A stretch of DNA of 64,000 nucleotides from Patescibacteria group bacterium. GTDB taxonomy: Bacteria > Patescibacteriota > Patescibacteriia > CAIXNZ01. The position numbers were made by a program, and so were the translations under genes. This document shows positions 40,926 to 43,754 of the stretch, one piece after another. Numbering within the stretch: the first letter of the stretch is position 1; each line of letters starts with the position of its first letter. The stretch spans positions 1,932-65,931 of the forward strand of contig JBAZJU010000008.1 of the NCBI GenBank assembly GCA_041651155.1, read 5' to 3'. Below the pieces are notes generated by a model. The model was given only the letters and a program-made list of their open reading frames with translations, did not search any database and was not told the origin of the DNA.

Positions 40926-41004
40926 CTACAGATTACAGATATTTACAGATTTACAAATTTTTGAGATTTTCATTAGTATTTCTGTATGAATCTGTAATCT
41001 GTAG
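40926..41004. mobile_element. 79-bp MITE-like element with perfect 15-bp terminal inverted repeats (CTACAGATTACAGAT ... ATCTGTAATCTGTAG), between atpF and atpE
   Basis: Read directly from the sequence. A second copy lies at 43674-43754. Confidence 0.65.
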
Positions 41005-41060
41005 TCAAAATAATTACTTGCTCAAGGAGGCAAATTTTGTCTCCTTGGTGTAAATAATCA

Positions 41061-41273
41061 TTAGGAAATACTAAATGCGATTACTAACGCGTAAATAGCT
41101 ACGGCTTCAGCAAAAGCAGCAGCTAAAAGCATTGGCACTAAAATTTTGCTCGCTGATTCAGGATTTCTACCAATTGATTCCATGGCTTTGGCGCCAATTT
41201 TGCCGATTGCCAAAGCTGGCGCGATTGAACCAATGCTAATGGCTAGAGCCTTTGCTATTAATGTTAAATCCAT
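41061..41273 (-). CDS. atpE: Fo ATP synthase c subunit
   Basis: 70 aa helical hairpin with the conserved acidic residue in helix 2 ([14 protein letters not shown]). Confidence 0.85.
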
Positions 41274-41336
41274 ATTAACTTCCTTACATCTGCTTTGAAT
41301 CGACTGATATTTTTTTGTTTAAAGTCGTTCGCCAGC

Positions 41337-41402
41337 AGAATTAAGAATTAAAAGTTAAAAACTAAGTTATTCCCTAATTCTTAATTCTAAATTCTTAATT
41401 CT
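41337..41402. repeat. inverted-repeat element between atpE and atpB (agaattaagaatt ... aattcttaattct x2)
   Basis: 13-bp arm with two tandem copies of its reverse complement. Read directly from the sequence. Confidence 0.55.
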
Positions 41403-41410
41403 AAATAATT

Positions 41411-42292
41411 TCAATGCTCTTCTTTAGTAGTTGCAATCGTCATATAAACCAGAGTCAAAATCGCAAAAATTAAAGCTTGAATCATACCTACAACTAATTC
41501 TAAGAACATAAAAGGTATTGGCACCAAAAACGCGAACAAAGCTGCCATGGATGCCAAAAGCACTTCGCCTGCAAAAATATTACCAAAAAGACGAAATGAC
41601 AGCGAAGCAACCTTGGCAATCTCGCCTATTATTTCCACCAAGCCCACAAAGGCCTTAATTGGATTAACCAAAACTACGGTCGGTTCTTTAATTATCTTCT
41701 TGGGAATCTCTAAAAATGCTTTAATATTGATAAATTTATTAACGTAAGTCCACGTCCCGACCATGATCATGCCTACTATATTAGCGCCGATAACTGAGAA
41801 TAACGCCAAGGCCAATGTTGTATTTAAATCAGCCGTGCCGCCGCGAAAAAATGGAATGAAAACCTTATGGCCTTCTTCCAGCGCGTAAAAACCGATTGAA
41901 CCAATACCAGGCAATAGGCCGAGCCAATTATTCAATAAAATAAAAACAAATAACGCGAAAACAATGGGGAAAAATTTTAAAGTTTTTTCTCGGCTGCCAG
42001 TAACTGAATCACATAAATCTAAGGCTCCTTCCACAATAATTTCCATGGCATTCTGAATTCCTTTTGGTATTTTTTTTATTTTCCAATGCAGGACCAAAGA
42101 AACAATAACTACAATCATCACTACCAACCAGCTATTTAACAGCGAATTAGTCACCGTAAATCCGCCTAAATTAAAAACCGGCTCAGCAAATAAAGTCGGC
42201 TTTTCTCCAGTGCTAGCCTGGGCTTCACTAGTTGCAGCCGCATTATTTTCAAAATCAAATATATTTTGTCCTTGTTCACTATTTTCGGTCAT
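41411..42292 (-). CDS. atpB: Fo ATP synthase a subunit
   Basis: 293 aa. Conserved R-containing helix (LSFRLFGNIFAGE). Confidence 0.85.
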   Translation of the reverse strand: MTENSEQGQNIFDFENNAAATSEAQASTGEKPTLFAEPVFNLGGFTVTNSLLNSWLVVMIVVIVSLVLHWKIKKIPKGIQNAMEIIVEGALDLCDSVTGSREKTLKFFPIVFALFVFILLNNWLGLLPGIGSIGFYALEEGHKVFIPFFRGGTADLNTTLALALFSVIGANIVGMIMVGTWTYVNKFINIKAFLEIPKKIIKEPTVVLVNPIKAFVGLVEIIGEIAKVASLSFRLFGNIFAGEVLLASMAALFAFLVPIPFMFLELVVGMIQALIFAILTLVYMTIATTKEEH

Positions 42293-42599
42293 CTTTTTTA
42301 TTTATTTCTTTATTATTGAATTTTTCCATTTGCTTAATCGCCCCTGTCGCTTCTTTAACCATGCCAAACATGGAAATCGTAAAAGCCACAATCACCGTGG
42401 CTAAAAATAACCAGGGCTTGGTATTGAATCTCTGATCCAGCCATCTGCCTAAAAATACCCCGATTATAATCGGCGCTACAATCCAGCCGCTTAACTGAAC
42501 AAAGATAGTAATTCCTGGCTGCCACCAGGGTACATTTACTTTTTGCTCTATTTTCTTTTCATCTTCCATCTTCTTTTTTCTTAATTCTAAAGTCTGCAT
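42279..42599 (-). CDS. AtpZ/AtpI-like small membrane protein at the head of the atp operon
   Basis: 106 aa, two TM helices. Overlaps the atpB start. Confidence 0.45.
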   Translation of the reverse strand: MQTLELRKKKMEDEKKIEQKVNVPWWQPGITIFVQLSGWIVAPIIIGVFLGRWLDQRFNTKPWLFLATVIVAFTISMFGMVKEATGAIKQMEKFNNKEINKKDDRK

Positions 42600-42794
42600 T
42601 CTAAATAAAAAAAGCTCCTCACGAGTCTTATGTTTTTACCTAAAATAGTTTTCCACAATTTTAGGATTCACTCCTAATTTTATAACAAAAAGAAGAAAAA
42701 ATCAAGCCTCCTGAAAAATTATCCCCACAAATTTGCAAAAAATCTTCGGCTTAAAATTTTAAAAGGCTAATTTTAGCCAAATTATAAGTAATAT

Positions 42795-43670
42795 TTATAG
42801 TTTAAATAAATTGCTTGCGTTCTCAAAGGTGGCCCTTTCAACTTCTTCAAACGTCATTTGTTTTAAATCAGCAATTTTCTGCACAACATATTGCACATAA
42901 GAAGGTTCATTTCTCTGTCCGCGATAAGGCTCTGGCGCCAAAAATGGCGCGTCTGTTTCCACTAAAATTTTATCTAAGGCAATCTCACTAGCTATCTGCT
43001 GTAATTCTTTGGCATTTTTAAAAGTCACAATGCCAGTAAACCCAATATAAAATCCTAAATCAATAAATTTTAAAGCCTGATCTAATGTCCCGCCAAAACA
43101 ATGAACAACTCCCCTTTTCCCGTCTGAACGCCAATCGCCAAGTACCAATTCCAAAACTTCCAGCATTGTATTATAAGCGCCATAAGGATCTTTTTCCTCG
43201 CCTCGGCAATGCAAAATTAATGGCAAGTCAGTTTCTTTGGCTAAATTAATAAATTCGCGAAAAATATTTATCTGCATTTCTTTAACTTCAGTGAGCGGAT
43301 GTTTAGAATCTGCTAAACGGAAAAAATCCAAACCAGTTTCACCCAAGCCCACTACCCTATCGCTTGATTTGGCTAATTCCAAATATTTATTATAATTAAA
43401 TTTTTCTCTGGGAGTAAAAAAAACAGTTTCTTTGCCATCAAATTCAGATCTTTCTTCTATATCTTTAATTAAGTGGATTGGATGCACACCAACAGCAGCC
43501 CAAACCCCCAAGCCAAATTTATTCGCAATTTCTACTGCTTTTTGGCTAGATTCATAATTAGAACCAACATTAATCAGCCAGGTTTTATTATCTAAAGAAC
43601 GCTGAATTACCTCATTTAATTCAGCGTCGTATTCTTTAAAATTTATATGCGCGTGCGAATCAATAAGCAT
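42795..43670 (-). CDS. tatD: TatD-family metal-dependent DNase/hydrolase
   Basis: 291 aa. MLIDSHAHIN start. TatD motifs: HCRG, GETGLD, VETDAPFL. Confidence 0.8.
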   Translation of the reverse strand: MLIDSHAHINFKEYDAELNEVIQRSLDNKTWLINVGSNYESSQKAVEIANKFGLGVWAAVGVHPIHLIKDIEERSEFDGKETVFFTPREKFNYNKYLELAKSSDRVVGLGETGLDFFRLADSKHPLTEVKEMQINIFREFINLAKETDLPLILHCRGEEKDPYGAYNTMLEVLELVLGDWRSDGKRGVVHCFGGTLDQALKFIDLGFYIGFTGIVTFKNAKELQQIASEIALDKILVETDAPFLAPEPYRGQRNEPSYVQYVVQKIADLKQMTFEEVERATFENASNLFKL

Positions 43671-43673
43671 AGG

Positions 43674-43754
43674 CTACAGATTACGGATAAATACAAATTT
43701 ACAGATAAATATAACTTTATAATTCGTATATCTGTACAAATCTGTAATCTGTAG
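43674..43754. mobile_element. 81-bp MITE-like element, second copy (TIR ctacagattacggat ... atctgtaatctgtag, 14/15 match), between tatD and cvpA
   Basis: Read directly from the sequence. Terminal repeats are shared with the element at 40926-41004. Confidence 0.65.

Follow-up and report, generated by a model that had tools for sequence, protein, structure and literature searches.

Two short palindromes in a 64-kb stretch of DNA from a Patescibacteria group bacterium (the whole stretch analysed, hereafter the window) are, in the reading that we favour with moderate confidence, gene-less members of a family of palindromic cassettes. Copy 1 (40926..41004, 79 nucleotides, nt) lies in the atpE–atpF spacer and copy 2 (43674..43754, 81 nt) in the cvpA–tatD spacer. 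In its full form the cassette is a gene of ~123 codons for a GxxExxY nuclease of the PD-(D/E)XK type, set between inverted arrays of three to four heptamer boxes of the (Y)RCNGAT type. Direct observations comprise a shared architecture, an association with the gene, covariation of boxes and proteins, the relic of a deletion in one lineage, insertion polymorphism and a signal of exchange at one cassette. The boxes would be the recognition sites of a probably dimeric nuclease, and its cuts, followed by repair through host recombination, would move cassettes, and derivatives without the gene, to other intergenic spacers or copy them there. Such movement would resemble that of hairpin-forming doublets of repetitive extragenic palindromes (REPs), known as REPINs, with their REP-associated tyrosine transposases (RAYTs), or else homing. 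The hairpins of the window, which have no terminator tail, would merely be carried and tolerated in polycistronic transcripts, and if they alter the expression of atp or tatD, for instance by blocking exonucleases or serving as RNase III sites, that would be a by-product.

Inverted box arrays with and without a GxxExxY gene

Both copies are near-perfect palindromes. The initial annotation of this DNA had reported two ~80-bp elements with 15-bp terminal inverted repeats, and their coordinates and inverted ends were borne out, with agreement at 15/15 and 14/15 positions at the tips. The 15-mer CTACAGATTACAGAT occurs exactly three times in the window, always at an element end and in inverted orientation, and the left end of copy 2, CTACAGATTACGGAT, differs from it by one mismatch. 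Allowing up to three mismatches added one further match in the window, which is unrelated (chance expectation 1.13). The inverted repeat is longer than 15 nt: it forms arms of ~33 nt with four YACNRAT boxes each, in the layout C-TACAGAT-TACAGAT-NNN-TACAGAT-W-TACRAAT (box spacing 0/3/1). Copy 1 has C TACAGAT TACAGAT ATT TACAGAT T TACAAAT on its left (40926..40958, + strand) and C TACAGAT TACAGAT TCA TACAGAA A TACTAAT on its right (40972..41004, read on the − strand). The corresponding arms of copy 2 are C TACAGAT TACGGAT AAA TACAAAT T TACAGAT (43674..43706, +) and C TACAGAT TACAGAT TTG TACAGAT A TACGAAT (43722..43754, −), and the two copies are 77.8% identical over 81 nt. Folding of the transcribed (−) strand, a check that had been proposed with the annotation, gave strong hairpins with AT-rich stems for both (copy 1, −31.7 kcal/mol, z −7.0 against shuffles; copy 2, −27.1 kcal/mol, z −5.6). 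The annotation saw no protein encoded in either, and the open reading frames (ORFs) that overlap them are indeed short and evidently spurious.

The same layout recurs widely. A scan of one genome per species with the element pattern returned 23 loci and a scan of metagenomes with a one-arm pattern returned 52, giving 75 loci and 71 distinct arms from genomes of the candidate phyla radiation (CPR) and metagenomes. These arms share C-TACAGAT-TACAGAT-N3-TACAGAT-W-TACAnAT, and the fourth box and its offset recur among them though they lay outside the search pattern. Matches with the full architecture within the CPR fell in Falkowbacteria, Uhrbacteria and Berkelbacteria. Matches in other phyla were looser (GATTACA)n inverted arrays or belonged to a separate Bacteroidia family, and the one-arm pattern had no match on viral contigs. 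One Falkowbacteria metagenome-assembled genome holds three strict copies, in the hrcA–grpE spacer, downstream of rplK and after a TraD-like ORF. The sites occupied (atp, tatD, rplK, hrcA–grpE) are functionally unrelated, and the nearest relatives of copies 1 and 2 are copies from other genomes (85% and 84%, respectively).

The TACAGAT-arm pattern alone retrieved GxxExxY genes at the loci that we label L048, L032, L064/L029 and L019. At L048, perfect inverted arms of the TACAGAT type, ~36 nt long, surround a GxxExxY ORF of ~123 amino acids (aa); at L032 and L064 the gene lies between arms with the same four-box spacing; and at both L029 and L019 a cassette with the gene shares its contig with a gene-less element. 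The short elements L068/L036 come from the same sample as L048, have arms identical to those of L048 and retain in their loop the ATG and the final codons (...AAC CTT) of the L048 gene, in frame. In that lineage at least, we conclude from the two in-frame gene ends that the long form gave rise to the short one by internal deletion. No gene other than PF13366 was found between such arms. The initial annotation had proposed a machinery in common with the ACNGAT arrays that flank GxxExxY genes; this idea gains support from the four-box arms that bracket such genes at L048, L032 and L064 and further support from the in-frame relic in L068/L036.

Nested or tandemly duplicated arrays are sometimes seen around the gene or around one another (L019, L032, L033, L068). 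At L019, in Berkelbacteria (1929-2056 and 4611-5300), two to three array pairs surround the GxxExxY gene, L068 has two identical elements 159 nt apart and L033 has three arms inside 200 nt. These arrangements hint that elements insert into or beside each other.

Heptamer microsatellites could also give rise to such palindromes on the spot, through replication slippage and palindrome-templated repair, in which case the elements would be immobile and their resemblance to GxxExxY cassettes incidental. Most spacers of the window and its relatives do hold locus-specific tandem repeats of period 7 or 8, whose unit changes between relatives at the same site, and (GATTACA)n inverted arrays are found across many unrelated phyla. 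We nevertheless regard this origin as quite unlikely: a fixed four-box 0/3/1 layout with a conserved terminal C is common to 71 distinct arms at different loci in different genomes, an identical layout brackets a gene, the spacers are fixed in length and free in sequence, and copies 1 and 2 are each closest to copies of other genomes.

The window itself contains two paralogous GxxExxY genes (PF13366/TIGR04256), pA (50986..51333, −, 115 aa as called) and pB (52403..52774, −, 123 aa), each between inverted arrays of CACNGAT boxes. The upstream array of pB (52837..52865, −) reads CACTGAT-N6-CACTGAT-N2-CACAGAT and its downstream array (52343..52372, +) is inverted relative to it. For pA, three CACGGAT boxes upstream (51389..51417, −) face an inverted array downstream (50950..50979, +), and all six boxes (6/6) are CACGGAT. 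Arrays of at least three YACNRAT boxes number 11 in the window against 0.01 expected from Markov shuffles; four are the arms of copies 1 and 2, four flank the two GxxExxY genes and three are further gene-less arrays.

We scored a gene as bracketed when at least two forward RCNGAT boxes lay upstream and at least two reverse boxes downstream. Both window GxxExxY genes (2/2) have such flanks, against 0/54 other window ORFs, as do 13/15 metagenome GxxExxY genes, several of which are one gene on different contigs, against 2/465 other ORFs. This degenerate-box test was used in place of an earlier exact-6-mer test, which under-counted because ORF calls overran the arrays and the fourth box position is free.

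Inverted box arrays flank most of the bacterial homologues that were examined, in different phyla. Cultured examples are Bacteroides finegoldii (boxes CACAGAGG, downstream of radA), Bernardetia (CACAGAG, between ade and a mannose-1-phosphate guanylyltransferase gene), Sphingomonas (CGCGAAG, between fabD and fabG) and Treponema (CACGGATTCG, upstream of a Fic-family gene). To these we add a 63%-GC contig, L136 (CACNGAT, between acrA- and acrB-like genes), and a CPR lineage, L125 (CACAGAT-type, between tmk and thyA); at all six loci the GxxExxY gene is co-oriented with its housekeeping neighbours. Box type varies with protein subfamily. The proteins with CAGAG(G) boxes (Bacteroides, Bernardetia, Gemmatirosa) are mutual nearest neighbours across phyla, those with TAC-type boxes at 0/3/1 spacing cluster together, as do those with CAC-type boxes at 6/2 spacing, and two Gemmatirosa paralogues differ in box type, each in line with its own protein subfamily. 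This covariation indirectly supports the view that the encoded nuclease may bind or cut the boxes.

The encoded nuclease and the target of selection

The PF13366/GxxExxY family, whose function is listed as unknown (PMC3424549), comprised 33,944 clusters at 50% identity (E ≤ 1e-3). Its invariant residues are G27, E30, D69, E79, K81 and Q93, with the catalytic D...ExK among the invariant positions. An AlphaFold2 model of pB (predicted local distance difference test score, pLDDT, 93) has a Cas4/RecB-like fold, and a fold search returned a generic PD-(D/E)XK core with Cas4 as top match and indicated no specific mechanism. Many of the best-scoring family members are ~260 aa long and contain two tandem GxxExxY domains, which suggests that the working unit may be a dimer. 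Sequence and profile searches found no solved structure of a GxxExxY protein. PADLOC gave no significant match for pB and a marginal one for pA (E 1e-3), to a generic PDDEXK domain, and a PHROGs search yielded nothing informative.

Selection on the elements was assessed in 16 complete members. Deviations from the box consensus were compensated in the opposite arm in 2 cases and uncompensated in 34, and within the N3 spacers, whose length is fixed, the two arms agree at 8/48 positions. Because the deviations are uncompensated and the N3 length is fixed while its sequence is free, we conclude that the constraint lies on the individual boxes and their spacing and not on hairpin complementarity. 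Such a constraint is what recognition by a protein predicts, unlike that on a purely structural RNA.

Insertion polymorphism, exchange and a possible host function

The genes around both copies are all on the − strand, in the order metG, cvpA, tatD, atpI-like, atpB, atpE, atpF, atpH, atpA, atpG. Copy 1 lies 56 nt past the stop of atpE (c subunit, 41061..41273, PF00137) and 32 nt ahead of the start of atpF (b subunit, 40387..40893, PF00430), and the gene calls thus place it where it had first been located, between these two genes. The cvpA–tatD spacer is copy 2 apart from 2 nt and 3 nt: a cvpA-family gene (43757..44266, PF02674) ends 2 nt before it and a tatD-family gene (42795..43670, PF01026) starts 3 nt past it. 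A second, native hairpin follows atpE (41023..41047, −, CAAGGAGACAAAATTTGCCTCCTTG); it is not part of copy 1, is present in all relatives and marks the ancestral atpE–atpF spacer.

Comparison with relatives revealed presence/absence polymorphism. In L079–L084, whose AtpF is 84–85% identical, the atpE–atpF spacer measures 64–67 nt against 167 nt in the window, aligns on the atpE side including the native hairpin, and lacks the element. In L085, a 79% relative, the exact place of copy 1 is taken by another small insert, a GC hairpin of a family with CTAAAG/CTTTAG loops. The cvpA–tatD spacers of relatives are 41–61 nt long, against 86 nt in the window, and contain unrelated repeats; L079 and L082 are without the element at both orthologous sites. 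Copies 1 and 2 are therefore dispensable in close relatives, and since relatives do without it, the element is not needed for the atp operon. Conservation of the sequence at one site among relatives had been named at the outset as the mark of a regulatory hairpin; relatives with 84–85% identical AtpF instead lack it in both spacers. Contigs encoding the same AtpE and TatD proteins, tried as a strain comparison, were 100% identical and so represent the same genome, with no polymorphism. The search for target-site duplications that the annotation had called for found none at the window copies, and the empty-site comparison revealed none either; a candidate at copy 1, long and degenerate with AAGT..TTATT on either side, was judged unconvincing.

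The polymorphism bears directly on the proposal that the hairpins are cis-acting RNA elements of the host operons (stabiliser, processing site or attenuator) that tune atpE/atpF and tatD. The strong hairpins on the transcribed strand would suit such a role, as would the location of copy 1 beside the conserved native atpE hairpin and of copy 2 against the tatD start codon. We consider it very unlikely, given that relatives with the same operons lack the copies, that arm differences are uncompensated and that a 3x3 internal loop is maintained. There is also no Rfam match, terminator tail or promoter beyond chance: Rfam gave 0 matches at the gathering threshold in the whole window, and a promoter/terminator scan found neither a terminator-like site (GC-rich stem and U tract) at copy 1 or 2 nor any signal above chance at either element. 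Sub-threshold Rfam matches at the elements were to generic miRNA-precursor hairpins and were taken as chance.

A signal of exchange was found at pB when the cassette and its neighbours were compared with relative L122, and the atp genes with L085. The pB gene is 95.2% identical to its L122 counterpart at the nucleotide level (0.87 at third codon positions) and its upstream array 91%. The last 224 nt of the adjoining transketolase-C gene are 88.8% identical, against 75.7% for the remainder of that gene, 80% for the DUF2090 gene, and 78–87% for atpE, atpH and atpD against L085 (third codon positions 0.62–0.69). The tract 52403-53100, formed by the pB cassette and the transketolase-C 3′ end, is 89–95% identical to L122 and other genes are 72–87% identical, so that raised identity extends ~220 nt into the gene upstream of pB. 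Because it centres on the cassette and spills into one flank, this raised identity indicates a recent exchange, probably by recombination or co-conversion, as after homing. pA, at 71.6%, is more diverged than average. The subfamily of the pB cassette (80% aa identity) was also found at an unrelated locus in L123, another Parcubacteria genome.

Several observations weigh against the cassette reading of copies 1 and 2. The window has no GxxExxY gene with TAC-type boxes, those of pA and pB being CAC-type with other spacing, and in 64 kb there are two copies and one to three related arrays only, amid an abundance of other heptamer arrays with no nuclease link. Copies 1 and 2 are not mutual nearest relatives and so give no evidence of recent intragenomic copying. 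No target-site duplication or insertion footprint was found at the two window copies or at ~20 complete copies elsewhere, and a PD-(D/E)XK nuclease cuts DNA and cannot join it, so that it does not by itself account for insertion. Homologues on viral, largely giant-virus-like contigs are without arrays (1/28); the association of array and gene holds for the bacterial loci examined and not for viral-contig homologues. Finally, pA and pB hold the same positions in L122, which fits a host-level function too, and copies kept at orthologous sites better than their flanks fit such a function equally well as selfishness: the copy at a site common to L023 and L047 is 88% identical against 78–80% for its flanks. 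That copy is old, as is one downstream of rplK that L008 and L035 have in common.

A host-level function would be expected if the arrays were operator-like or structural sites of a domesticated GxxExxY protein or of another host factor, so that the palindromes are regulated and not selfish, with transcript processing, operon insulation or nucleoid organisation as candidate roles. Retention of gene-flanking arrays and some gene-less copies at orthologous sites beyond their flanks is in its favour, as are the constant co-orientation of GxxExxY genes within operons and the selection on boxes regardless of pairing, and RAYTs offer a precedent (PMC5581495). Domestication sits poorly with the absence of both window copies from close relatives, the unrelated functions of the occupied sites and a patchy, multi-copy, cross-phylum distribution, and the synonymous-site identity of pB speaks for lateral exchange and not for constraint only. 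We judge it unlikely.

The window's other repeats deserve description in their own right. Of gene-less arrays with related boxes, a third palindrome (5626..5767, 142 nt, −57 kcal/mol) has TACTAAT/TACGAAT boxes, arms GGATACTAAT.TACGAAT, an array of at least three boxes at 5629-5663 and a GC-rich hairpin within its loop (CCTGCCTGCC...GGCAGGCAGG); a solo four-box array (3784..3818, +) consists of TACTAAT/TACAAAT and a solo three-box array (7125..7158, −) of TACTAAT. Tandem repeats of 7–8 nt, often as inverted arrays, occur in almost every intergenic spacer of the window and of L079, L082 and L085 (in the window at 37297-37431, 38338-38402, 39927-39964, 41274-41410, 20897-20931, 53834-54006 and 59652-59759), with units at those loci that do not match the YACNRAT box. 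The unit varies by locus and, at one locus, between relatives; the atpB–atpE spacers of the window and relatives use TAAGAAT, TAAGTAG, TAAGATT and TACGAAT. The independent assembly of the window's genome, L003 (Logan contig SRR8542065_352508), stops within this spacer's heptamer-repeat hairpin (window position 41377), and such repeats appear to break short-read assemblies.

A second mini-repeat family consists of short GC-rich hairpins with CTAAAG/CTTTAG loops (e.g., CCCCACTTTAGTGGG..CTGCTAAAGCAGGG). It occurs in the window at 22249-22398, 3779-3957, 44267-44745, 46297-46386 and 48087-48261, as well as in the atpE–atpF spacer of L085 and the atpG–atpD spacer of L082, and is polymorphic between relatives. 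The region 10625-17124 encodes four paralogues of ~350 aa with 300-nt blocks that are 60–92% identical; they and an internally repetitive gene (11273-12394, 171–174-nt repeats) adjoin the gene of a 1170-aa Laminin_G_3 protein (7163-10675). Together these genes look like a surface-protein cluster unrelated to the palindromes.

Relation to known systems and significance

REPIN/RAYT is the closest functional analogue (PMC5581495, PMC3733652). In both systems one small gene for an enzyme stands between oppositely oriented copies of a short palindrome, and palindromic doublets without a gene are scattered over spacers between co-directional genes; transcripts of the repeats form hairpins, and the gene often keeps its position while the repeats vary between relatives. 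The enzyme differs, being here a PD-(D/E)XK nuclease (Cas4/RecB-like) and in RAYTs a Y1 HUH transposase. So do the ends, here three to four heptamer boxes at fixed spacing, whereas a REP is a 20–40-bp palindrome, or stem, one end of which bears an unpaired tag, GTAG or CGTC (PMC3733652). CTAC/GTAG does stand at the element termini, yet at both of them, base-paired and as part of a box, and the CAC-type subfamilies lack it. Copy number also seems modest here, and mobilisation is inferred. With an enzyme other than a Y1 transposase and ends that lack the unpaired GTAG tag, the cassettes fall outside REPIN/RAYT.

The elements also resemble bacterial miniature inverted-repeat transposable elements (MITEs) such as Correia/NEMIS, Nezha and RUP, being short, non-coding, polymorphic, bounded by terminal inverted repeats and located in operon spacers; as in MITEs, internal deletion of a gene-bearing form has produced the short one, here in one lineage. 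The initial label of MITE-like thus stands as to inverted repeats, small size and polymorphism, and does not as to target-site duplications, none of which was found, or a transposase, none being known. The partner with the same arms at L048, L032 and L064 encodes a PD-(D/E)XK nuclease and no recognised transposase, and each inverted repeat is built of several boxes between which the spacer sequence can vary. Strict membership fails, since no target-site duplication was found and no transposase is known. It is most improbable that copies 1 and 2 are a classical MITE or a REP/REPIN mobilised in trans by a DDE transposase or RAYT encoded elsewhere in the genome, much as small non-coding elements with terminal inverted repeats, insertion polymorphism and CTAC...GTAG termini might invite that view: PF13366 is the sole gene found between such arms, the window ORFs tested include no transposase, and the paired GTAG at both ends is at odds with the unpaired one-end tag of REPs (PMC3733652).

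Free-standing homing endonuclease genes are likewise small nuclease ORFs between conserved genes, and the flank tract at pB resembles their co-conversion; a PD-(D/E)XK example of a homing endonuclease is I-Ssp6803I (PMC3384342). They differ in having no inverted box arrays of their own and in targeting an uninterrupted host site, whereas the conserved repeats described here are part of the element and also occur where the gene is absent.

The short tandemly repeated repetitive (STRR) sequences of heterocystous cyanobacteria are intergenic heptanucleotide tandem repeats with units such as CCCCAGT, whose function is unresolved. Like the present arrays they are tandem heptamers in intergenic positions, sometimes inverted, with other units. 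We know of no link between them and a nuclease gene, and the plasmid collection searched contained no cyanobacterial GxxExxY gene. No prior description of an association between GxxExxY genes and box arrays was found in the searchable literature, subscription-only papers lying outside it.

More broadly, and tentatively, we propose that GxxExxY nucleases partner mobile palindromic cassettes throughout the bacteria, with ends made of cognate boxes and with host recombination spreading copies, both with and without the gene, across operon spacers, and that these may seed the intergenic heptamer repeats of CPR genomes. In practical terms, such elements appear to break short-read assemblies, L003 ending in a heptamer array, and can be mistaken for regulatory RNAs. 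GxxExxY is now tied to a defined cis element, with its boxes, spacing, inverted geometry and gene-less derivatives, so that what it does can be tested directly in cultured Bacteroides, Sphingomonas or Treponema. If the nuclease does mobilise the palindromes, it would represent a second, mechanistically unrelated route to the lifestyle of REP/RAYT and a source of hairpins inside the essential operons of streamlined CPR genomes.

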